From positions 1-32,457 of the forward strand of contig JAPLLL010000007.1 in the NCBI GenBank assembly GCA_026387595.1: DNA of 32,457 nt, written 5' to 3'. The notes below the pieces were generated by a model. It was not told where the DNA came from, did not search any database, and saw only the letters and a program-made list of their open reading frames with translations. This document shows, piece by piece, positions 1,012 to 14,652 of the stretch (positions are counted from its first letter, which is position 1; each line of letters starts with the position of its first letter). This DNA comes from Candidatus Omnitrophota bacterium. GTDB lineage: Bacteria > Omnitrophota > Gorgyraeia > JABMQH01. A program made the position numbers and the translations under genes.

Positions 1012-1464
1012 ATGATAGAAGGTGTGAAAATTAAGAAATTAAAGATTATTCCGGATGAACGCGGCCGCCTCATGGAAATATTGCGCAAGGATGAGGATAT
1101 TTTTGTAAAATTCGGCCAGGTTTATATGACGACCGCATATCCTGGCGTGGTAAAGGCGTGGCATTATCACAAAAAGCAGACGGATAATTTTACGTGCGTG
1201 GCAGGCAGGATGCGGCTGGGGCTGTATGACGCAAGGCCGAACTCAAAAACGTTTAAGGCAGTTGAGGAGTTTATTGTGAGTTCGGATGAAAACCCGATAC
1301 TGGTTCAGATCCCGCCTTTAGTTTATCACGGCTTTAAATGCGTAGGCGATAAAGAAGCGATCGTGATAAATACCGTCACGCATCCGTATGATCCGAAAAA
1401 GCCGGACGAATACAGGATAGACGCTTATGATAATGATATCCCGTACGATTGGAGGAAACCATGA
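1012..1464 (+). CDS. dTDP-4-dehydrorhamnose 3,5-epimerase-like cupin (short RmlC family)
   Basis: IIPDERGRLMEI..., VKAWHYHKKQTD, YDARPNSKTF and PPLVYHGF match the RmlC-type cupin pattern. ATG 1012 is preceded by GGAG (1003-1006). ATG 982 is an in-frame alternative start. Confidence 0.75.
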   Translation: MIEGVKIKKLKIIPDERGRLMEILRKDEDIFVKFGQVYMTTAYPGVVKAWHYHKKQTDNFTCVAGRMRLGLYDARPNSKTFKAVEEFIVSSDENPILVQIPPLVYHGFKCVGDKEAIVINTVTHPYDPKKPDEYRIDAYDNDIPYDWRKP

Positions 1465-1763
1465 ACCCAGCCCCTCCTAAATTTTACTATGTATATATGC
1501 TAAGGAGCCCACAAACGAAATGGCTATATACTGGATGCACGTCAGACCTAAAAAAACGTTTGGCTGAACATAATTCAGGAAAAAATTATTCAACAAAGAA
1601 ATATTTACCTGTTGAATTGGTATATTATGAAGCGTATAGCTCTAAAAAGGATGCCTTTGAACGAGAAAATATGTTAAAACAACATGGCAGCAGTGTACAA
1701 AAACTTAAAAATAGACTTAAATGGACCTTAAAACCATTACTGAAAGAAGGAGGGGCTGGGTGA
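1461..1763 (+). CDS. Small GIY-YIG nuclease-domain protein (100 aa), cassette copy 1
   Basis: YYVYMLRS...LYTGCT...RLAEHN...FERENMLK fits the GIY-YIG catalytic-domain pattern (UPF0213/Slx1-like size). ATG 1461 follows GGAGG (1451-1455). It overlaps the upstream stop as ATGA and the downstream start as GTGA. Confidence 0.85.
   Translation: MNPAPPKFYYVYMLRSPQTKWLYTGCTSDLKKRLAEHNSGKNYSTKKYLPVELVYYEAYSSKKDAFERENMLKQHGSSVQKLKNRLKWTLKPLLKEGGAG
1465..1478. repeat. Left inverted-repeat arm of cassette 1 (ACCCAGCCCCTCCT)
   Basis: Exact reverse complement of 1748-1761. Confidence 0.95.
1748..1761. repeat. Right inverted-repeat arm of cassette 1 (AGGAGGGGCTGGGT); contains an SD-like GGAGG and the first two bases of the downstream GTG start
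   Basis: Exact reverse complement of 1465-1478. Confidence 0.95.
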
Positions 1764-2491
1764 AAGGCATAGTATTGGCAGGAGGCTTGGGGAAACGGCT
1801 ATACCCGTTGACAAAAATCACCAATAAACATCTTCTCCCTATTTATAATAAACCGATGATCTATTATCCGATAGAAACGCTTGTTGATGCCGGCATTAAA
1901 GAAATTGTTGTCGTAACAGGTGGCAATCACGCAGGCGAATTCTTAAGGCTTCTTGGGAACGGCCAGGAATTCGGTCTGAACCACCTTCATTACGCATATC
2001 AAGAGGGCGAAGGCGGGATCGCGGACGCGCTAAAATTGGCGGAACACCTTGTAGGTGACGATAAACTTGTAGTTATCCTTGGCGACAACATTATTGAAAA
2101 GAGCATAAGAAAACAGGTTGAGCGGTTTAAAAAACAAAGGCAGGGCGCGCGCATCCTGCTTAAAAAGGTAAGCGACCCGCAGCGTTTCGGCGTAGCCGAG
2201 ATAAAAAATGGCAAGGTTGTTTCGATAGAAGAAAAGCCAAAGAAACCAAAATCCGATTATATCGTTACCGGCATCTATATGTATGACAGCAAGGTCTTTG
2301 ACATTGCGCGTTCGCTTAAACCTTCGGGCAGGGGAGAGCTGGAGATAACCGACGTGAATAACGCCTATATTAAAAAAGGCCAGCTCACGTATGATTTCCT
2401 GGACGGCTGGTGGACCGATTCAGGCACGGTTGATTCGCTTTTGAAAGCGAATAATCTGGTTGCAAGGCTTAAGGGCGGGAAAAAGAAATAG
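1760..2491 (+). CDS. rmlA: Glucose-1-phosphate thymidylyl/nucleotidyltransferase (short RmlA-like form)
   Basis: (V)KGIVLAGGLGKRLYPLT..., LLPIYNKPMIYYP and EKPKKPKSDY are typical sugar-1-phosphate nucleotidylyltransferase motifs. GTG 1760 gives the canonical MKGIVLAGG N-terminus, with GGAGG 6 nt upstream. The ATG 1721 in the ORF track lies inside the GIY-YIG ORF and adds a non-homologous extension. Confidence 0.8.
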   Translation: MKGIVLAGGLGKRLYPLTKITNKHLLPIYNKPMIYYPIETLVDAGIKEIVVVTGGNHAGEFLRLLGNGQEFGLNHLHYAYQEGEGGIADALKLAEHLVGDDKLVVILGDNIIEKSIRKQVERFKKQRQGARILLKKVSDPQRFGVAEIKNGKVVSIEEKPKKPKSDYIVTGIYMYDSKVFDIARSLKPSGRGELEITDVNNAYIKKGQLTYDFLDGWWTDSGTVDSLLKANNLVARLKGGKKK

Positions 2492-3616: not shown

Positions 3617-4545
3617 AACTATTAGTTACCGGCGGGTGCGGTTTTATAGGCTCAAATTTTATCAGGTATATCCTGAAAAAACATCCGGGCTATAAAATCG
3701 TGAACCTTGACAACATTAAAGACCTGGAGAAAAAAAATAATTATAGATTTGTCAAAGGGGATATCTGCGACGAAAAAATAGTTTTAAAATTGTCAAAGGG
3801 TGCGGATGCAGTGATAAATTTTGCGGCCGAAACCCACGTTGACAGATCCATTAAGGACCCTGCAAGCTTTGTAAAGACCAATGTTTACGGCGTATATTCT
3901 ATTCTTGAGGCGGTCAGGAGGAACAGCATTAAACGGTTTGTTCAAATATCAACTGACGAAGTTTATGGCAGTATTTCCGTCGGAGAATTCAAGGAACCGG
4001 ATCCGCTCAGGCCCAACAGCCAGTATGCTGCCAGCAAGGAAGGCGCAGATCTTTTATGCAGGTCGTATTTTGTGACCTATAAAATGCAGGTTGTTATTAC
4101 GAGGAGTTCCAATAATTTCGGGCCGTATCAATACCCGGAAAAAGTGATCCCGCTTTTTGTTACGAATGCGCTGGAAAACAGGAAGCTGCCGGTTTACGCG
4201 GACGGCTTAAATGTGAGGGATTGGCTGTACGTAGAAGATAATTGCAGCGCCATAGACCTGGTTTTGCATAAAGGCCTTGCCGGTGAAGTTTATAATATCG
4301 GCGGCGGCAACGAACTCACGAACATGGCGCTTACTTACGCGATCCTGGGCCTGATGAGAAAACCCAAGAGCCTTATAAAATTCGTAAAGGACAGGCCCGG
4401 CCATGACAAACGATACGGCCTTGACTGCGGAAAAATAAAAAAAGAACTGGGCTGGGCACCGCGGCGCGGATTCAGGGCCGCCCTGAAGGAAACAGTTGAG
4501 TGGTATGAAGAAAATACAGAATGGTGGAAAAAACTTAAAGGATAA
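3613..4545 (+). CDS. rmlB: dTDP-glucose 4,6-dehydratase, lacking the conserved KLTYAGNLE segment
   Basis: [41 protein letters not shown] and [10 protein letters not shown] match RmlB. It overlaps degT by ATGA. See the finding on the 9-aa gap after VNLD. Confidence 0.85.
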
Positions 4546-4546
4546 A

Positions 4547-5848
4547 ATGGAAAATATATTGAAAAAGAAGATCCAGGAAAAGGAAGCAAAGATAGGTATT
4601 ATAGGCCTTGGTTACGTAGGGCTTCCGCTTGCGGTTGAATTTGCCAAAAAGGGCTTTGATGTCGTCGGGATAGATGTGGATAAGACAAAGGTCGCCTCGC
4701 TTAAACAGAAACGAAGCTATATCCTGGATGTTACCAGCGAGGATGTGAGGGCCGTTGTCAGCGCCGGGCTTTTTTACGCGACAACCGATTACGGCGCGAT
4801 AAAAAAGCTGGATGCGGTCATAATTTGTGTTCCCACCCCGTTAAGGAAAACAAAAGAACCCGATATTTCATACATTATATCAGCTGCGGAACAGATCGCA
4901 GCCAATAGCAAAAAAGGCCAGCTGGTTATCCTTGAAAGCACTACATATCCGGGCACTACAGAGGAGGTGGTGCTGCCGATCCTGGGGAAAAGCGGCATGA
5001 ATATAGACAAGGATTTTTTTCTCGCCTTCTCTCCGGAAAGAGTTGACCCGGGCAATTTAAAGTTCAAGACAAGGGATATACCCAAGATCGTGGGCGGCGT
5101 AACAAAAAAATCGTCTGATCTTGCGAAAACCTTGTATAGCCAGGTTATGAAAGAAGTCCTGACGGTTTCATCCAGCAAGGCAGCCGAAATGGTAAAGCTG
5201 CTTGAAAATACGTTCCGCAGCGTTAACATCGGCCTTGTCAACGAGATAGCCCTTATGTCGAATAAGCTTGGCATTAATGTCTGGGAAGTCATTGACGCCG
5301 CAAAGACGAAGCCGTTCGGATTCATGCCGTTTTATCCCGGGCCGGGCCTGGGCGGACACTGTATCCCCATTGATCCCCTGTATCTTTCCTGGAAAGCGCG
5401 CGCGTATGGTTTTGAGGCGAGATTTATTGAACTTGCCGATATGGTGAATTCCTACATGCCGGAATATGTAGTAAAACGCATTGGCGAGATCCTTAATGGA
5501 TTTAAAAAATCTCTTTTAGGTTCTAAGGTTCTGATCGTGGGGGTTACGTATAAACGGGACGTAAACGATATGCGGGAATCGCCGGCAATGGAGATCATAA
5601 GAGACCTGATGAAGAAAGGGGTTACAGTGTCGTATTTCGATCCATACGCGCCCAGGATAAATATTGACGGGAAAACGCTTTATTCAACAAAATGGAAACC
5701 GGCGATATTCAAAAAAGAGGACTGCGTAGTTATAATTACTGATCACTCGTCAATAGACTATGAAGAAATTTTAAAGAATTCCAAAATGGTGTTTGACACA
5801 AGAAATATCTATAAAAACATTGAGGCAAAAAACCTGGTGAGGCTATGA
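4547..5848 (+). CDS. Nucleotide-sugar dehydrogenase (UDP-GlcNAc/UDP-ManNAc 6-dehydrogenase family; WbpA/WecC/Cap5O-like)
   Basis: IGIIGLGYVGLPLA, SPERVDPGN, GPGLGGHCIP and GVTYKRDVNDMRESP match the family. ATG 4547 lies just after the rmlB stop (4543-4545). The TTG at 4496 is an unlikely upstream extension. Confidence 0.85.
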   Translation: MENILKKKIQEKEAKIGIIGLGYVGLPLAVEFAKKGFDVVGIDVDKTKVASLKQKRSYILDVTSEDVRAVVSAGLFYATTDYGAIKKLDAVIICVPTPLRKTKEPDISYIISAAEQIAANSKKGQLVILESTTYPGTTEEVVLPILGKSGMNIDKDFFLAFSPERVDPGNLKFKTRDIPKIVGGVTKKSSDLAKTLYSQVMKEVLTVSSSKAAEMVKLLENTFRSVNIGLVNEIALMSNKLGINVWEVIDAAKTKPFGFMPFYPGPGLGGHCIPIDPLYLSWKARAYGFEARFIELADMVNSYMPEYVVKRIGEILNGFKKSLLGSKVLIVGVTYKRDVNDMRESPAMEIIRDLMKKGVTVSYFDPYAPRINIDGKTLYSTKWKPAIFKKEDCVVIITDHSSIDYEEILKNSKMVFDTRNIYKNIEAKNLVRL

Positions 5849-5862
5849 ACCCCGCACCTTCT
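5849..5862. repeat. Left inverted-repeat arm of cassette 2 (ACCCCGCACCTTCT)
   Basis: Exact reverse complement of 6131-6144. It differs from the copy-1 arm at 3 positions, and each change is compensated in the partner arm. Confidence 0.95.
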
Positions 5863-5873
5863 GTATATTCAAA

Positions 5874-6146
5874 ATGTATTACGTATACCTTCTGAGAAGT
5901 GAGAAGAACGATAGTTTTTATATTGGATATACAAAAGATATCAATCGGCGATTTAAAGAGCATAATACAGGGTCGGTTGAATATACGAGGAAATATATGC
6001 CATGGGAATTAATTTACTATGAAAGCTTTATTTCGTTGGAAGATGCTAAAATACGTGAAAAAACTTTGAAGCATTTTGGAAAAGGATTTACACAATTGAA
6101 GATTAGACTCAAGAAGAGTTTGAATAAGAAAGAAGGTGCGGGGTGA
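5874..6146 (+). CDS. Small GIY-YIG nuclease-domain protein (90 aa), cassette copy 2
   Basis: MYYVYLLRS...FYIGYT...RFKEHN...IREKTLK matches the GIY-YIG pattern and, by eye, is roughly 40% identical to copy 1. It ends ...KEGAG (copy 1 ends ...EGGAG). There is no SD before ATG 5874, and the junction ATG at 5845 is in a different frame. Confidence 0.8.
   Translation: MYYVYLLRSEKNDSFYIGYTKDINRRFKEHNTGSVEYTRKYMPWELIYYESFISLEDAKIREKTLKHFGKGFTQLKIRLKKSLNKKEGAG
6131..6144. repeat. Right inverted-repeat arm of cassette 2 (AGAAGGTGCGGGGT)
   Basis: Exact reverse complement of 5849-5862. It supplies the G and T of the downstream GTG start (6143-6145). Confidence 0.95.
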
Positions 6147-7072
6147 AAAAAACGTATCTGGTTACGGGCGGGGCGGGATTTATAGGGTCAAATATCGTGG
6201 ATGAGTTGGTCAGACGCGGGCAACGTGTTAAAGTGGTTGACAGTTTCATTACCGGCCGCCGCGAAAATCTTAAACACCTTTCAGGCAAGATAGAATTGGT
6301 AAAAGGCGACATCAGGGATCTGAACCTTATGGTTAAGATCACCAAAGGGATAGACTATGTAATACACCAGGCTGCGTTCAGGTCTGTGCCAAAATCCGTC
6401 GAGGACCCGACGCTTTGTACCGAGACAAACGTTAATGGGACGCTCAATGTCTTGATCGCGGCGCATAAAGCGAAAGTTAAACGCGTAGTATACGCGTCCA
6501 GCAGCTCTGTCTACGGCGATGTTATTAAATTTCCCCAAAGGGAAGAGGATGATTTGTTCCCGCTTTCGCCGTATGGCGCGTCAAAATTGGCCGGCGAGCA
6601 TTATTGCAAAGTTTACACGGCCACGTGCGGGCTTGAGACGGTAGGCTTAAGGTATTTCAACGTTTTCGGGCCCAGGCAAAATCCTGAATCGAAATATTCG
6701 GCCGTGATCCCGATATTTATTTACAAAATGGTAAGGGGCCAGCGGCCCGTTGTTGACGGAGACGGAAAACAATCGCGCGATTTTACCTATGTTGCGAATG
6801 TTGTAGAAGCTAATCTGCGGGCAATAGTTGCAAAAGGCGCTTCAGGGCAGGTCATTAATGTCGGATGCGGCGGCAGTTATTCTGTATTAGATATCATAAC
6901 AGCGCTGAATAAATTCATCGGAAAAGATATAAAACCGGTTTTCGGGCCGGCCAGAAAGGGCGATGCCAGGAAAACCAAAGCGGATATCAGCAGGCTAAAA
7001 AAGTATCTCGGCATAACACCTAAGGTGGGTTTTGAAGACGGACTTAAGAAGACCCTGGCCTGGTTTGCCTGA
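6143..7072 (+). CDS. NAD-dependent epimerase/dehydratase (extended SDR; UDP-sugar 4-epimerase-like, WbpP/TviC type)
   Basis: (V)[28 protein letters not shown] and QSRDFTYV match the family. The GTG start overlaps the GIY-YIG stop as GTGA. Confidence 0.85.
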   Translation: MKKTYLVTGGAGFIGSNIVDELVRRGQRVKVVDSFITGRRENLKHLSGKIELVKGDIRDLNLMVKITKGIDYVIHQAAFRSVPKSVEDPTLCTETNVNGTLNVLIAAHKAKVKRVVYASSSSVYGDVIKFPQREEDDLFPLSPYGASKLAGEHYCKVYTATCGLETVGLRYFNVFGPRQNPESKYSAVIPIFIYKMVRGQRPVVDGDGKQSRDFTYVANVVEANLRAIVAKGASGQVINVGCGGSYSVLDIITALNKFIGKDIKPVFGPARKGDARKTKADISRLKKYLGITPKVGFEDGLKKTLAWFA

Positions 7073-9700: not shown

Positions 9701-9777
9701 TGTCCCTCGCCTTGCATGAGAGACTCAAAGGCTCGGGATCAATTTCAGAATGTAAACGATAGAAATTGGGAGGAATG

Positions 9778-12700
9778 ATGAAAAAAAAGATTTTGGTTTT
9801 CAGCGTAATATGTTCTTTTTTGTTCTCTCAGCCATTGTCGCTGCTGGCCCAACAAAATGATATAAACGAGATAAGCGCCCAGCTGGAAGAGACAACAAAA
9901 AATCTGGAAAAGCTTAGCAACGGGGAAGAGGCGTATAGGAAGTTTACGTGTCCCGCCTGTGAACGGCAGTTTGAAATAGGAGTGGACCCCAACGACATAG
10001 AGTTAAAAAAAGGTATCAAGAAAGTAATCTGCCCCTATGACGGCACGGAATTTTACCCCCAGATCGCCGGCACTACTGAGCAGGAACTGCAATATGAGAC
10101 GATCCGCTGCCCGAACTGTGGCCGGGAATTCAAAAGTTATATAGACGTAAAGGCGCTATTATCGGGCCAGTCCCAGGTGCTGACCTGCCCTTATGACAAA
10201 CGTAAATTCTATTTCAAGGCAGAGGGTTTCAGGCCGGCGATATTGGCATGGGCAAATCTGCAGACCGTGATATGCCCCGCCGACAATAGGACTTTTAAGG
10301 CATATGTAGACCCTACGAATCTTAAAGAATTAACCTGCCCCTATGATGGGACAAAATTTTTCCCCACCCCTGAGCTGATTATTCCTCAACAAGGCATGGC
10401 GTCCGGTTTAAGTAGTAGCGGTATCGGTTCCGCCATGAAACAAACTACCTCAGGCAACGGCTTAGGAGATGCGGCGTTGCCAACAATGGTTTCCCAGGTA
10501 ACCGGCATTGCGCAACGGTTTGCGCCTGAAGAGAAACCTTCACGGATTGAGCAAATGTTCTCGGAACACATCCCCCTAAGCGTTTCAACAGCAATGAAAC
10601 AATTCGGGTATGACATGTTTAAACCAGTTGAAAAAATAAGCCAAGAGAAAGAACAAAAAGACCAGGGGGCACAGGCAACCGGTGAAAGCGGGAATAAGCT
10701 ATTAAATGTTCTGCTCGGCACGGGTCAGCAGGATAAAATGTCGGTTGCGGGAGGAGGTAGCGAAGGCGGACTTTCTATATTCTCCACGCCCGCGGAAATA
10801 CCCGTAATAAACGACTATATACTTGGCCCGGGCGATATGCTAAAGGTCTCTGTCTGGGGGCAGATACAGGAGGTTTTCCCGCTTACCATTGATTCTGAAG
10901 GTAAGGTGCTGCTTCCAAAGGTTGGCCCATTATATCTATGGGGCGTAAAATTCAGCGACGCCGAGAAACTGATCAAAGAGAATCTGCTTAAGGCGTATAC
11001 AAATATCGAGGTCAGCGTTTCTATGGGCAGGCTGCGCGGTATAAAAGTTTTTGTATTGGGAGAGTCCCAAAAACCGGGCGCCTACACAATAAGTGCTTTA
11101 TCAAATACGTTCCACGCCCTCTATGCCGCCGGCGGGCCGTCTAAAATAGGCTCGATGCGCAATATTAAACTTGTGCGGAAAGGCTCGGCCGATATGCCGG
11201 TTGATCTTTACAATATACTGCTCAAGGGGGATAACAGCCAGGACTATAAACTTGAGTCGGGCGATACAATATTTATACCCCCGATAGGCGACGTAGTCGG
11301 CGTAGCCGGTAACGTAAAGCGCCCTGCCATCTACGAACTTAAAGACAAGATCAAATTGAGCGACATGATAGATATGGCAGGCGGTTTTTCTTCAGTGAGT
11401 TATTTACAGCGGATCCAACTTGAAAGGATACAGGAACACCTGAGAAAAGTAGTTGTGGATCTGGAGTTTAAATCCCTCTCCGATTTAAAAAATTCCGACA
11501 ATAATCTTGAATTACAGGACGGAGATTTAATCCTGATATTCCCGATTACGCCTATTCGGTATAATTTCGTGTCGATTTCCGGAAACATCCTGAGGCCGGG
11601 TGATTACGAGCTTAAGCAAGGCATGCGGCTTAAGGACCTCATAGATAAGGCCGGCGGAATATTGCCTGGCACATACCTGAAGCGCGCCGAGGTCTCCAGG
11701 TTCAAGGGCGACCAGACAAGGGAGATAATGCCTATCAGCCTGATGGACCTTATGGACAACAGGGAAGAGGCCAATATAACGCTTAAGGAATGGGATACGG
11801 TCACGATATATTCGAGAAAAGAGGTTATGCCTAATCTTTTCGTGGCTATTGACGGTGCTGTCAATAATCCTGGCAAATACGAACTCACGGAAAATATGAA
11901 AGCAAGCGACCTGGTATTCAGGGCGGGCGGGTTAAAAAGCAGCGCGCTTTTATCGAATGCCGAACTATTCAGAAGCTTTGCCGATTCCGGCCCCAAGGTG
12001 TTCAATGTTGATTTAGGCCAGGTGATGTCAAAGGACATAGAGCAGGCCACTAAAAACGATGTAGTCCTGGAAGAAGGGGACCATTTATTCGTGCGCGAAG
12101 ACACCACAAAAGGCGAGCAGTTTATAATTACCGTATCCGGTGAGTTTAAGTACCCCGGCAAATATGCTGTTGAAAAAGGCGCAAAACTCAGCGCGGTCAT
12201 TAAAAGGGCGGGAGGTTTTACGGACAAGGCATTTTTGGACGGTTGTATTTTCACAAGGGAAAGCGTAAGGGTCGCGCAACAAAGAATGCTGAAGACCTAC
12301 ATAGAATCAGAACAAAAGGCTTTGCTGCAGGAGCAGTCTTCGATGGCGGTAGGGCTTACACCGGCCCAGGCGGACTCAAGGAACAAGCTGATTGAATACA
12401 GAAAAAATCTTATGCAGCAGCTGGAGTCGGTAGATATGCCTGGACGGGTGTTAATCAGGCTTAGTGGTATGAACAAATTTGAAAACAGTGAATATGACAT
12501 CACTATCGAAGACGGGGATACTTTATCTATCCCTATCTACCCCTCAACCGTCCAGGTGCTTTGGAACGTCTACGGGGCCGGCGTGGTTACATTCAGCGAA
12601 GGCAAAGGTATAGATTATTATATACAGAGAACAGGCGGGGTTACAAAATATGCCGATGTAAACAGGATCTTCATCATCAGGGCAAACGGAGAAACGATAA

Positions 12701-12867
12701 GCAGCTTTGTAAGGGCCGTAAAGGTAAAAAGAGGAGATGCTATCATTGTTCCGGAAGAGTTCAAATACAGAACGGTACCGGGACTTGTATTCAAAGATTT
12801 CGTGCAAGTTCTATATCAAGCTACATTGGGCGCTGCTGTTACTATTGCAGCGATAAATACAATGTAA
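9778..12867 (+). CDS. Large polysaccharide export protein (Wza-like Poly_export domain plus multiple SLBB repeats) with an N-terminal triple Cys-motif repeat
   Basis: It has a signal peptide. ILGPGDMLKVSVWGQ...GKVLLPKVGPLYLWG is the Poly_export signature. Repeated PG.Y.L....L.D.I..AGG units are SLBB-like, and the C-terminus has a hydrophobic helix. GGGAGG (9768-9773) precedes ATG 9775 and ATG 9778. Confidence 0.85.
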   Translation: MKKKILVFSVICSFLFSQPLSLLAQQNDINEISAQLEETTKNLEKLSNGEEAYRKFTCPACERQFEIGVDPNDIELKKGIKKVICPYDGTEFYPQIAGTTEQELQYETIRCPNCGREFKSYIDVKALLSGQSQVLTCPYDKRKFYFKAEGFRPAILAWANLQTVICPADNRTFKAYVDPTNLKELTCPYDGTKFFPTPELIIPQQGMASGLSSSGIGSAMKQTTSGNGLGDAALPTMVSQVTGIAQRFAPEEKPSRIEQMFSEHIPLSVSTAMKQFGYDMFKPVEKISQEKEQKDQGAQATGESGNKLLNVLLGTGQQDKMSVAGGGSEGGLSIFSTPAEIPVINDYILGPGDMLKVSVWGQIQEVFPLTIDSEGKVLLPKVGPLYLWGVKFSDAEKLIKENLLKAYTNIEVSVSMGRLRGIKVFVLGESQKPGAYTISALSNTFHALYAAGGPSKIGSMRNIKLVRKGSADMPVDLYNILLKGDNSQDYKLESGDTIFIPPIGDVVGVAGNVKRPAIYELKDKIKLSDMIDMAGGFSSVSYLQRIQLERIQEHLRKVVVDLEFKSLSDLKNSDNNLELQDGDLILIFPITPIRYNFVSISGNILRPGDYELKQGMRLKDLIDKAGGILPGTYLKRAEVSRFKGDQTREIMPISLMDLMDNREEANITLKEWDTVTIYSRKEVMPNLFVAIDGAVNNPGKYELTENMKASDLVFRAGGLKSSALLSNAELFRSFADSGPKVFNVDLGQVMSKDIEQATKNDVVLEEGDHLFVREDTTKGEQFIITVSGEFKYPGKYAVEKGAKLSAVIKRAGGFTDKAFLDGCIFTRESVRVAQQRMLKTYIESEQKALLQEQSSMAVGLTPAQADSRNKLIEYRKNLMQQLESVDMPGRVLIRLSGMNKFENSEYDITIEDGDTLSIPIYPSTVQVLWNVYGAGVVTFSEGKGIDYYIQRTGGVTKYADVNRIFIIRANGETISSFVRAVKVKRGDAIIVPEEFKYRTVPGLVFKDFVQVLYQATLGAAVTIAAINTM
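9943..10368 (+). repeat. Three tandem protein-level repeats, C-P-x-C-x3-F...(17-23 aa)...C-P-Y-D-x3-F, within the export protein
   Basis: The repeats are FTCPACERQFEIG...VICPYDGTEFYP, IRCPNCGREFKSY...LTCPYDKRKFYF and VICPADNRTFKAY...LTCPYDGTKFFP. The third has lost the second Cys. Confidence 0.8.
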
Positions 12868-12947: not shown

Positions 12948-13286
12948 ATGATTGAACAAAACAATAAGCCCAAAGAAGAAGCTTTCTATATCATCAGGCA
13001 TCTGGAAGAGAACCCAGCCGCTACACAACGTACAGTTTCGGACAAATTAGGCATTTCACTAGGTAAAACCAACTACCTTATAAAAGAACTTATCAAAAAA
13101 GGTTTCATAGAAGCCCAGAATTTCACTTATAATTCCGGAAAGCTGCAGAAGGTCCAGTATCTACTTACAAAAGCGGGGCTCGAAGAGAAATGGCGCCTTG
13201 CGAATTATTTCATGCAGATAAAAGAAGCCGAATATAACGTTATGAAGCAGGAGCTGTCCAAACAGCATAATAATAAGGTTATATGA
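12948..13286 (+). CDS. MarR/winged-helix transcriptional regulator of the EPS-associated type
   Basis: The 112-aa protein carries QRTVSDKLGISLGKTNYLIKELIKKGFI (HTH) followed by KVQYLLTKAGLEEK (wing/helix), the typical architecture of small EPS-locus MarR regulators. Confidence 0.7.
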   Translation: MIEQNNKPKEEAFYIIRHLEENPAATQRTVSDKLGISLGKTNYLIKELIKKGFIEAQNFTYNSGKLQKVQYLLTKAGLEEKWRLANYFMQIKEAEYNVMKQELSKQHNNKVI

Positions 13287-14652
13287 ACGCATATATGATA
13301 TACCCGTGCCAGGGGAACATGACCAGTTTTAATCATGGTCTAGCATCCCTGATAGCGGTATTAAAACAACGCGGCCACCGCGTGCACCTGATGCTCGTGG
13401 ATGATTATACCGGCCCGCGTCGGATATTAAAAGACATAACAGATTTTAAGGCCGACCTGGTCGGTTTTTCCTGTGCGTCTAATTACTGGCAGTACGTAAA
13501 GACCTTGTCGCGGAAGATGCGTTCCGTTACGGGCCTAAAAAATATGCCGATATTCGTAGGCGCGCCCCACGCAATATCATGCCCCTCCTCCCTGGCCGAA
13601 AGCCCTGATATAGACGGTTTTTGCGTAAGCGAAGCAGGGATTTTACGGATACTGCCGGCTTTTATTTCAGGGATCGAAAGGGTAGCGTAATAAAAAATGA
13701 TATCGGTATGTTAATAGATGACCTTGACGGACTGCCGTTCCCGGACAGGCAGGAGTATCCGCAGGCGGTGTTCCATAACTATGCCAATTTTATGTTTTCT
13801 AGAGGATGCCCGTATTCCTGCAGCTATTGCTGCAATTCCACATATCACCGGATATTCAGAGGAAAAGGAAATATGATACGGCACAGGAGCGTATCAAAAG
13901 CTATCGAAGAAATAAGATTATTTCTCGGTAAATATAAATCTAAGATGTTAAGTTTTGACGACGACTGTTTCAATAAAAAACCGCAGTGGTTCAGGGAATT
14001 TTGCGCCGAGTACAAAAATAATATCGGTATTCCGTATACATGTAACACGAGGCCTGAATTATTGGACAGTGAAACCGCGAGGATGCTGAAGGGGTCGGGA
14101 TGCAGGAAGATTAATATAGGCATTGAATCCGGGGACGAGACACTGAGGAGGACGGTCCTTAACCGCAACATGCGGGACGAGCAGATCATAGCGGCTTTTA
14201 ATTACGCGAAAGAAGCCGGGCTCGAGACGATGTCTTTTAACATGATAGGTTTCCCGGGCGAGACTAAAGAAAGCATTCAAAGTACCGTAAACCTGAATAA
14301 ATTGATCAAGCCGACCTACGCGCAGGTATCCGTATTTTATCCGTACGCGGGTACTCCGCTCGGAGAGCTTTGCAGGGAAAAAGGGTACATTGAAAAAGAA
14401 AGCAGCCTGTTCAGCTATATCGGACAGGGTGTTTCGGCGCTTAACCTACCGGGCCTTTCGAAAAAAGAGATAAAGGATATGTTCTTGACGTTCGACCTTC
14501 AGATATCAGGCGCCCCGGGCGGTTTTAAGAAGGCGTATATCGCAAAAAAACTCAAATACGCTATTTTTTCGCTTTACAGCCGCCTTCCGTATTTTTTGAA
14601 AGATTTCCTGAAACATGCGCGTGCATGTGCGGACGCGCATTCCATTTTGTAA
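13283..14652 (+). pseudogene. B12-binding-domain radical SAM enzyme, interrupted by a frame change near 13630-13650
   Basis: The 5' ORF (13283-13690) encodes a cobalamin-binding Rossmann domain (DLVGFSC...PIFVGAPHA...DIDGFCVSEAG). The 3' ORF (frame of 13621-14652) continues with DFTDTAGFYFRDRKGSVIKN...LPFPDR...SRGCPYSCSYCC (CxxxCxxC)...INIGIESGD. One protein is split over two frames. Confidence 0.8.

Follow-up and report, generated by a model that had tools for sequence, protein, structure and literature searches.

The 32,457-nucleotide stretch analysed here (the window), from contig JAPLLL010000007.1 of a Candidatus Omnitrophota bacterium (assembly GCA_026387595.1), contains two copies of a cassette in which a single gene for a small GIY-YIG nuclease is enclosed between perfectly complementary inverted arms. 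These cassettes probably (with a probability of about 0.6) represent a hairpin-ended mobile element of approximately 0.3 kb in which the arms pair within one strand and the resulting stem is read on single-stranded DNA (ssDNA) by the product of the only gene, a single-domain GIY-YIG protein. Across the family of related cassettes, the arms remain complementary while their sequence drifts, that is, they co-vary. The family is multi-copy, occupies many unrelated sites and includes mini-derivatives that lack the open reading frame (ORF). Comparison with empty sites further shows, at the level of sequence, that one of the window copies was inserted into a 4-nt ATGA stop/start overlap with duplication of TGAA.

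Two cassettes with complementary arms

The arms of the cassette that lies further downstream in the window (copy 2), ACCCCGCACCTTCT at 5849..5862 and AGAAGGTGCGGGGT at 6131..6144, both on the plus strand, are complementary at 14 of 14 positions and are separated by 268 nt, as established by reading the sequence and with a repeat finder. This confirms the perfect 14-bp repeat described in the original prediction, a note made from this DNA sequence alone. The arms of copy 1, identified in the same manner, are ACCCAGCCCCTCCT (1465..1478, plus strand) and AGGAGGGGCTGGGT (1748..1761, plus strand). Between the two copies, the left arms differ at positions 5, 8 and 12 and the right arms at positions 10, 7 and 3, which are the matching positions, so that three changes are compensated and none is uncompensated, exactly as had been predicted. 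The identity of the two encoded proteins had been underestimated at roughly 40% and is actually 48% (44/92); copy 1 belongs to a different lineage from copy 2. In the whole window, the repeat finder detected only these two perfect inverted repeats of at least 14 nt within 600 nt, and the estimated chance expectation for such a repeat is approximately 0.07 per window (32457 x 600 / 4^14).

The outermost A/T pair of the copy 2 arms is probably part of the duplicated target TGAA, the element proper extending from the terminal CCCC to the terminal GGGG (5850..6143, plus strand, 294 bp), as suggested by the empty-site comparison and by the CCC/GGG termini that are invariant in 72 arm pairs (see below). 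The element proper of copy 1, CCC...GGG, occupies 1466..1760 on the same strand. The 14-bp stem is closed in both the minimum free energy (MFE) and the centroid structures of the two window cassettes (z = -7.05 and -4.92). In copy 2, the stem might be lengthened to about 22 bp by pairing of a possible second helix strand, TATTCAAA (5866..5873, plus strand), with TTTGAATA (6119-6126) across a 3x4 internal loop. The TATTCA/TGAATA pair of this putative helix is seen again in close relatives; in the MFE fold of copy 2, the TATTCAAA stretch is paired locally and not with TTTGAATA.

Insertion into an ATGA overlap

Both cassettes are placed exactly between the stop codon of the upstream gene and the start codon of the downstream gene. 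At the left junction of each copy, ATGA is followed by the arm, TGA being the stop of the upstream gene and the overlapping ATG opening a frame that begins with MNPAP(S/P); at the right junction, which reads GGGGTGA in both copies, TGA is the stop of the nuclease gene and GTG is the start of the next gene. The CCCC...GGGG body is bordered by TGAA on each side. In copy 2, the left TGAA (5846..5849, plus strand) holds the TGA stop of a UDP-sugar dehydrogenase gene (4496-5848), and the right one (6144..6147, plus strand) holds the TGA of the GIY-YIG ORF together with the last two bases of the downstream GTG. This GTG, the start codon of a gene for an epimerase of the short-chain dehydrogenase/reductase (SDR) superfamily (6143..7072, plus strand), consists of the last G of the element and the TG of the duplicated TGAA. 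In copy 1, the left TGAA (1462-1465, plus strand) holds the stop of an RmlC-like gene (982-1464) and the right TGAA (1761-1764, plus strand) lies at the beginning of an RmlA-like gene (1760-2491, plus strand) that starts with GTG at 1760 (KGIVLAGG); deletion of the copy 1 cassette in silico gives ATGAAAGGC... (MKGIVLAGG).

The empty-site comparison covers the copy 2 junction between the dehydrogenase and SDR genes. The nearest homologues of the SDR protein are 76-77% identical to it and are encoded in the same order of DegT, epimerase, UDP-sugar dehydrogenase and SDR genes. In these syntenic relatives, the dehydrogenase and SDR genes overlap by 4 nt and the SDR gene starts at the ATG of ATGA, the empty site being ...GGCTATGA|AAAAA. 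In L164 and L165, the junction reads CTGGTGAGGCTATGA|AAAAATACC or, over a longer stretch, CTGGTGAGGCTATGA|AAAAATACCTGG; its counterpart in the window is CTGGTGAGGCTATGA[ACCCC...GGGGTGA]AAAAAACG, the longer read ending in AAAAAACGTATCTGG. The empty site in the relatives therefore identifies the cassette as an insertion into the ATGA overlap in which TGAA was duplicated and the ATG of the SDR gene was converted to GTG.

As read from the junctions, the stop, start and ribosome-binding signals are all regenerated: with the ATGA overlap of 4 bases duplicated, none of the four translation signals is lost. From the left TGAA copy, the upstream gene retains its TGA stop and the cassette acquires the former ATG; from the right copy come the TGA of the nuclease and, in combination with the terminal G, the GTG of the downstream gene. 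The first six bases of the right arm, AGAAGG in copy 2 (6131-6136) and AGGAGG in copy 1 (1748-1753), are located 6 nt before the GTG at 6143 and at 1760, respectively, and, given this Shine-Dalgarno spacing, look like the ribosome-binding sites of the downstream genes.

In copy 1, the captured ATG is in frame with the nuclease and opens an ORF of 100 amino acids (aa) (MNPAPPKFYYVYML..., 1461..1763, plus strand). In copy 2, the captured ATG of the former downstream gene opens a 16-codon ORF, MNPAPSVYSKCITYTF followed by a stop codon (5845..5895, plus strand), that reads across the left arm in a frame other than that of the nuclease. The original view of this arm as untranslated in the GIY-YIG frame stands in the sense that the arm lies outside that frame, but the arm is still translated in another one, from the ATG at 5845. 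The distance from the captured ATG to the core ORF is 29 nt in copy 2 compared to 30 nt in the in-frame relatives, and the run of four A residues that puts copy 2 out of frame might be an assembly error.

Covariation of the arms across the family

Homologues were retrieved with protein-core alignments and patterns only, the arms having no part in the retrieval; the first core alignment was too diverse for the locus search and a second alignment was used. The survey yielded 80 genome loci and 80 metagenome loci, most of them in metagenome-assembled genomes, with 171 genes that have sufficient flanking sequence. The hosts of the relatives belong to Omnitrophota, Planctomycetota, Patescibacteria and Elusimicrobia. 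Duplex prediction between the flanks with RNAduplex was dropped as too permissive (approximately 50 pairs per duplex, with a null of -33 kcal/mol), and counts of exact runs and anchored extensions were used in its place.

Of the 171 homologous genes, 107 are flanked by a perfect inverted repeat of 12 nt or more, up to 30 nt; the additional copies that the original prediction had called for thus extend the complementarity well beyond the two window cassettes. Among 72 distinct arm pairs anchored at the CCC run, positions 2-4 are invariant C:G pairs and each of the positions 5-12 shows 3-4 Watson-Crick pair types, the lone non-pair being an A:G at position 12. Just 43 of these 72 are paired at the position outside CCC, which accordingly belongs to the flank. 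Because the 72 arm pairs were selected for a perfect run, the independent signal resides in the prevalence of the repeats (107/171) and in the diversity of the arm sequences. In the extended helices of 108 distinct elements, there are 9 internal mismatches among 1811 pairs (3 G:T, 4 A:C and 2 transversions). An asymmetry between G:T and A:C (72 vs 34) was gone after control for base composition and so is not used as evidence of an RNA-level function. Stem positions 5 to approximately 20 vary freely among close relatives whose 83-aa protein core is 50-80% identical.

In most relatives, the arms are non-coding, being located before the ATG and after the stop codon or inside rRNA or RNase P RNA genes, and of 26 start codons captured at the left junction, only 8 are both in frame and open, although in-frame versions (MNPAPS...MY.VYLL) are present. 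The prevalence of perfect repeats and the mostly non-coding arms support the original proposal that selection acts on nucleic-acid pairing rather than on the terminal peptides.

Genomic sites of the relatives

The genomic contexts of 107 distinct elements were classified heuristically, so that the classes are rough: 13 cassettes are in rRNA (16S, 23S) genes, 9 in RNase P RNA genes, 11 abut the 5' end of a tRNA gene, 9 are at a TTGAC(A) box resembling a -35 element that is followed by a -10-like box, and 65 are at other sites. One cassette is located inside a gene for transfer-messenger RNA (tmRNA) as detected with Rfam. In 26 of the 107 elements, a downstream ORF of 80 aa or more begins no further than a few bases from where the right arm ends, usually at the final two bases of that arm; in 17, an upstream stop codon abuts the left arm. 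The arrangement seen in the window is therefore one recurrent class.

The sites in RNase P RNA are the P3 position, with the flanks GATCG|CCCC...GGGG|AGGAAAGTCC, and two other hairpin loops. The tmRNA gene (L015:550-1245; RF00023, 696 nt compared to the 374 positions of the model) carries the GIY-YIG cassette at 799-1047, with perfect arms of 19 nt. Within the 16S/23S rRNA set, the cassette of L031 appears, in our own reading of its flanks, to occupy the helix-45 site, the classical position of rRNA intervening sequences (IVSs). At the 5' ends of tRNA-Ala and tRNA-Val genes (L102, L110, L112, L139, L131, L013 and L111), the right-arm GGG(G) provides the first bases of the tRNA and 7-10 nt from the 5' end of the tRNA recur in the left flank; conservation at these loci is 94-96% for the elements, compared to 63-85% for the flanks. 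At the promoter-type sites (L009, L024, L025, L032, L094, L096, L115, L121 and L149), the right end abuts TTGAC(A), with a -10-like hexamer approximately 17 nt further on, and a second copy of TTGA is present on the left side; at many of these sites, the sequence of the left flank is GGGG(T)TGA, which mimics the right end of the element itself.

Flanking duplications, dispersed copies and derivatives

The direct repeats that flank the elements have a modal length of 4 bp (TGAA, TTGA, ATAA, TTTA), and repeats of at least 3 bp are found in 48% of the elements compared to 7% in a null with shuffled partners; a G-rich tract is present at positions -9 to -6. Contig L133 contains two copies that are 97.8% identical and have unrelated flanks, and copies of an element type with the arms GCCCCTCACTTGGAAAGAAT, located at a tRNA-Ala site, at a promoter site and at one other site, share 87-89% identity.

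Units without an ORF accompany several of the complete cassettes. In L087 (2344-2895), three head-to-tail units are joined through TGA, in the order of an ORF-less remnant of approximately 110 bp, an ORF-bearing unit with 3 mismatches in the right arm and a second ORF-less remnant of approximately 110 bp, and the downstream gene begins at the ATG of the final GGGATGA. ORF-less hairpins with the same stems as the cassettes are present in L095, L042, L125, L039 and L148. Both L042 and L125 contain several of these, with TTCA/TTTA direct repeats. In L095 (780-1590), three additional ORF-less hairpins with the CCCCGCACCTT stem are found downstream of and around the ORF-bearing cassette at the P3 position, and are taken to be in the same RNase P RNA gene; L039 has one extra hairpin of this kind. 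Viral contigs gave a single partial match, so that the element does not appear to be phage-borne. The terminal inverted repeats, the direct-repeat duplication, the empty site and the ORF-less units are features of insertion sequences and of miniature inverted-repeat transposable elements (MITEs). No recognised transposase (DDE, HUH, serine or tyrosine recombinase) is encoded in the cassette, whose sole ORF is the GIY-YIG nuclease according to Pfam, with no significant NCBIfam family, and no transposase gene accompanies the cassettes in the window.

The nuclease and its relatives

The GIY-YIG ORF of copy 2 encodes a 90-aa protein (5874..6146, plus strand; PF01541, E 6.8e-16) that contains every residue invariant in the family. 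PF01541 is detected in both window ORFs (E 7e-16 and 3e-16); in copy 2, the domain spans residues 1-66 and no other domain was found. The copy 2 protein is 36% identical over 73 aa to gonococcal SsnA (pairwise E 1e-13, hhalign probability 98%). The SsnA orthologue came from a chromosome filed among plasmids, and the tblastn match to it in the plasmid collection has an E value of 3e-5. In the original description of the Ssn proteins, the clade is defined by E < 1e-10 to Neisseria meningitidis SsnA or by membership in cd10448 (PMC11893778). With the family profile of the cassette proteins, SsnA scores 54 bits, a Rhizobium Ssn-type protein whose gene is flanked by SRM repeats scores 58 bits, and the UPF0213 protein YazA scores 58.5 bits; SsnA scores 108 bits against the Rhizobium protein and only approximately 15 bits against YazA. 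On these profile scores, the cassette protein appears to be a third clade between SsnA and UPF0213. The best matches by sequence among solved structures are UPF0213 proteins (1ZG2, E 1.8e-9), the matches to SLX1 in the PDB being weak, and a search of NCBIfam gave no meaningful family (TIGR01453 at 21 bits, with a cut-off of 56).

Two loci illustrate other arrangements of such genes. In L035 (2686-3564), from Chitinophagales, three tandem GIY-YIG genes are spaced by 315 nt and have no flanking inverted repeat longer than 6 nt; this would seem to be a distinct arrangement within the protein family, one that may not be mobile. The Rhizobium plasmid L167 carries a true Ssn-type gene with two canonical inverted SRM hairpins (CGTCATCCCAGGGCTTGACCCTGGGATCCAC) at 542-572 and 907-937, and this unit adjoins an IS4 transposase gene.

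Proposed mechanism and alternatives

In the mechanism that we propose, the arms would pair within one strand to form a fold-back stem with a CCC/GGG base, and the encoded nuclease, by analogy with SsnA, would recognise this stem on ssDNA and cut at its base in the course of excision or spread. Copies with mismatched arms would stop spreading, so that the copies seen today would be perfect. The same stem in a transcript would loop the cassette out, so that an insertion into a gene junction or into the helix tip of a structural RNA could be tolerated. The stem might also restrain translation of the nuclease from read-through transcripts; fold-back inhibition in IS10 offers an analogy for such stem-limited translation. 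Pairing would accordingly be needed in ssDNA for the spread of the element, and the stem in RNA for the host to bear it.

Several observations weigh against this mechanism. GIY-YIG enzymes are hydrolytic and cannot rejoin DNA, so that the insertion step lies outside the proposed scheme. The flanking repeats are 3-7 bp long, and only 0-2 bp in about half of the elements, which is odd for a transposase that makes staggered cuts. The cassette protein is as distant from SsnA as from the housekeeping UPF0213 protein YazA, and the canonical SRM consensus (HGTCWY N0-2 YYVSBRH N0-5 WNVSBRG N0-2 RNCYNB) has 0 matches in the window compared to 9 around gonococcal ssnA and 4 around the Rhizobium gene. 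Neither solo hairpins nor further copies were found in the window. Finally, all the structural-RNA matches that contain a cassette are on the strand of the cassette, the cassettes in rRNA genes are co-oriented with the host gene in 13 of 13 cases, and those in structural RNAs that were aligned in detail are located at hairpin tips, as selection at the RNA level alone would predict likewise.

With respect to the molecule in which pairing matters, we lean towards DNA, given the strictly Watson-Crick pairing without an excess of G:U, the flanking duplications and the homologue that acts on hairpins in ssDNA; the invariant CCC/GGG termini and the perfection of the stems whatever the context point in the same direction. 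An RNA-level role for the stem is possible as well and would fit the co-orientation with host RNAs, the helix-tip sites, the right arm as a ribosome-binding site and the closed predicted folds. A bolder version of the proposed mechanism is also possible, if doubtful: the 90-aa nuclease would act as a structure-specific 'transposase' on the end-to-end ssDNA hairpin of its own element, and the cassettes would make up an unrecognised class of minimal autonomous elements that enter T-N-R-A target sites and are nearly harmless. Such target sites would include ATGA overlaps, -35 boxes, tRNA 5' ends and helix tips of rRNA, RNase P RNA and tmRNA genes, and at each of these the element would regenerate stop, start and ribosome-binding signals or extend the host helix.

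Unlikely, in our assessment, is an exclusively RNA-level function of the stem, similar to that of the IVSs of 23S rRNA, in which the stem would be cleaved by RNase III or would extend a helix of the host RNA and the nuclease would not read the arms. Such a function would agree with the uniformly co-oriented relatives in 16S/23S rRNA (including L031 if our helix-45 reading holds), in tmRNA and in RNase P RNA (at P3 and at two hairpin tips), and with the terminal stem that is closed in the folds of both window cassettes; furthermore, ORF-bearing IVSs and their excision by RNase III are established according to work cited in PMC11270868. However, the stems are equally perfect at -35 boxes of promoters and at intergenic sites, where there is no host RNA to protect; the pairing shows none of the G:U tolerance of typical RNA helices; and a process at the DNA level is needed to account for the invariant termini, for the short duplications on either side and for near-identical copies at dispersed sites.

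It is less probable still that the arms are ordinary terminal inverted repeats bound as double-stranded DNA (dsDNA) by the GIY-YIG protein or by a transposase encoded elsewhere. Their terminal position, conserved outer bases and short flanking duplications are what would be expected of such repeats, as are the ORF-less derivatives, which resemble MITEs, but the arms vary so much (positions 5 to approximately 20) that their sequence-specific recognition by one small domain is unlikely, no transposase gene lies beside the cassettes in the window, and the nearest characterised homologue is inactive on dsDNA. The notion that the complementarity is a by-product of the terminal peptides (N-terminal NPAPS, C-terminal EGAG) or of chance is refuted by the family survey: many close homologues do have MNPAPS... 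and ...KEGAG ends, in a frame in which the wobble positions of the arms face each other, but the two synonymous wobble pairs (L5/R10 and L8/R7) show covariation between copies 1 and 2, the arms are mostly untranslated or within RNA genes, the captured start is in frame in just 8 of 26 cases, and 107 of 171 homologues have a perfect repeat of 12 nt or more, the chance expectation for one perfect 14-mer repeat being about 0.07 per window.

Several known kinds of element were considered for the window copies and rejected. An integron attC cassette does not fit a repeat that brackets the ORF instead of lying at one end, and no integrase is present; an intrinsic terminator does not fit the 268-nt loop and the lack of a T run. 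The window copies lie between protein-coding genes, unlike rRNA-type IVSs, and a scan of the window with Rfam gave no match, so that there is no intron or known RNA around the cassettes. An IS200/IS605 element is contradicted by the absence of an HUH domain, by arms without a local hairpin and by the TGAA duplication, and a group I intron with a GIY-YIG homing endonuclease by the absence of an Rfam match, the low TIGR01453 score (21 bits against the cut-off of 56) and the size of the protein, only 90 aa.

The surrounding gene cluster

The whole window is a single-strand capsule/polysaccharide cluster that includes genes for Wzi, NeuB, a cytidylyltransferase and radical SAM proteins. The gene at 9766-12867 encodes a 1033-aa polysaccharide-export protein with a Poly_export domain and several SLBB domains; its N-terminal region of approximately 200 aa contains repeated C-x-x-C ... 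FY/FK motifs and has no Pfam match. The ORFs at 13283-13690 and 13621-14652 (radical SAM), which share 70 nt but are read in different frames, could be one B12-binding radical SAM gene (13283-14652) split by a frameshift or an assembly error.

Implications and comparison with known systems

If the proposed mechanism is correct, the cassette would be smaller than any other self-contained mobile unit with a nuclease of its own seen in bacteria to date and would provide a second, testable biology for the recently described nucleases that act on hairpins in ssDNA. It would also explain a class of puzzling insertions in rRNA genes of candidate-phyla bacteria, and may explain some of the extended helices reported in RNase P RNA of these bacteria. 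A selfish gene can, in this manner, enter an operon without breaking it, as ATGA is duplicated and the arm brings a new ribosome-binding site. Each lineage would be a natural pair of a nuclease and a stem, with a different stem in each, a diversity of the kind that is sought for programmable cutting of ssDNA. In a literature search of incomplete coverage, neither the gene-in-hairpin architecture nor insertion into ATGA overlaps was found to be described, and cassettes in RNase P RNA or tmRNA were likewise not encountered, which is absence of evidence only.

The closest parallel is the Ssn family of single-domain GIY-YIG proteins of approximately 94 aa, which bind the NTS/SRM hairpin on ssDNA and cut beside it; SsnA has no activity on dsDNA or RNA and accepts split stems and loop extensions (PMC11893778). 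The ssn genes are flanked by NTS/SRM repeats, and the resemblance of NTS-ssnA-NTS to an insertion sequence was noted by the authors (PMC11893778). The two systems (for Ssn, see Chenal et al. 2025) share a gene for a single-domain GIY-YIG protein of approximately 90 aa bracketed by inverted, stem-forming DNA, matching ORF-less hairpins dispersed elsewhere, and stems that are C-rich on one side and G-rich on the other (TCCCGC...GCGGGA in Ssn and CCCCGC...GCGGGG in the cassette). They differ in that the Ssn gene has a compact 28-nt hairpin on each side whereas the cassette has one long-range stem with the gene in its loop, and in that insertion is shown for the cassette, by flanking duplications and the empty site, but not for Ssn. 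The Ssn hosts are mainly Pseudomonadati, as opposed to the Omnitrophota, Planctomycetota, Patescibacteria and Elusimicrobia that host the cassettes.

A survey of rRNA genes in the candidate phyla radiation (CPR) found GIY-YIG ORFs in insertions that are neither group I nor group II introns and seem to be spread by something other than classical homing (Tsurumaki et al. 2024, PMC11270868); inverted repeats have 0 mentions in that paper, and flanking duplications and non-rRNA sites are also unmentioned. For RNase P RNA of the CPR, extended helices are on record, without ORFs (PMC8172020). The cassette relatives resemble IVSs in that a short ORF within an inverted repeat has the orientation of the host RNA and is found at the tips of helices in 16S/23S rRNA, but the window copies are in mRNA at a gene overlap, and the ORF encodes a nuclease rather than an S23p/IVP protein. 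Proteins of the UPF0213/YhbQ/YazA group (1ZG2, 1YWL) are the best sequence matches with solved structures, YazA at 58.5 bits. The yazA gene of Bacillus subtilis lies between trmNF and rsmI and overlaps both; no SRM match was found there, inverted repeats not having been searched for.

Similarly to I-TevI and the Seg proteins of phage T4, the cassette is a GIY-YIG gene that forms a selfish insertion between or within host genes. In those enzymes, the DNA-binding domain is long and homing, which proceeds by recombination, is directed at a single cognate site, whereas the cassette encodes the 90-aa catalytic domain alone, has no ribozyme detectable with Rfam, possesses inverted-repeat termini and is found at many unrelated targets. 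With the IS200/IS605 elements and the repetitive extragenic palindromes (REP) with their REP-associated tyrosine transposases (RAYT), the cassette would share, under the proposed mechanism, a spread that depends on hairpins in ssDNA; it also shares a gene flanked by inverted hairpin repeats and short palindromic non-autonomous derivatives. Those systems employ an HUH tyrosine transposase with a covalent intermediate, have a sub-terminal hairpin at each end and produce no target duplication; the cassette, in contrast, combines a hydrolytic GIY-YIG nuclease with a single end-to-end stem and a direct repeat of approximately 4 bp.

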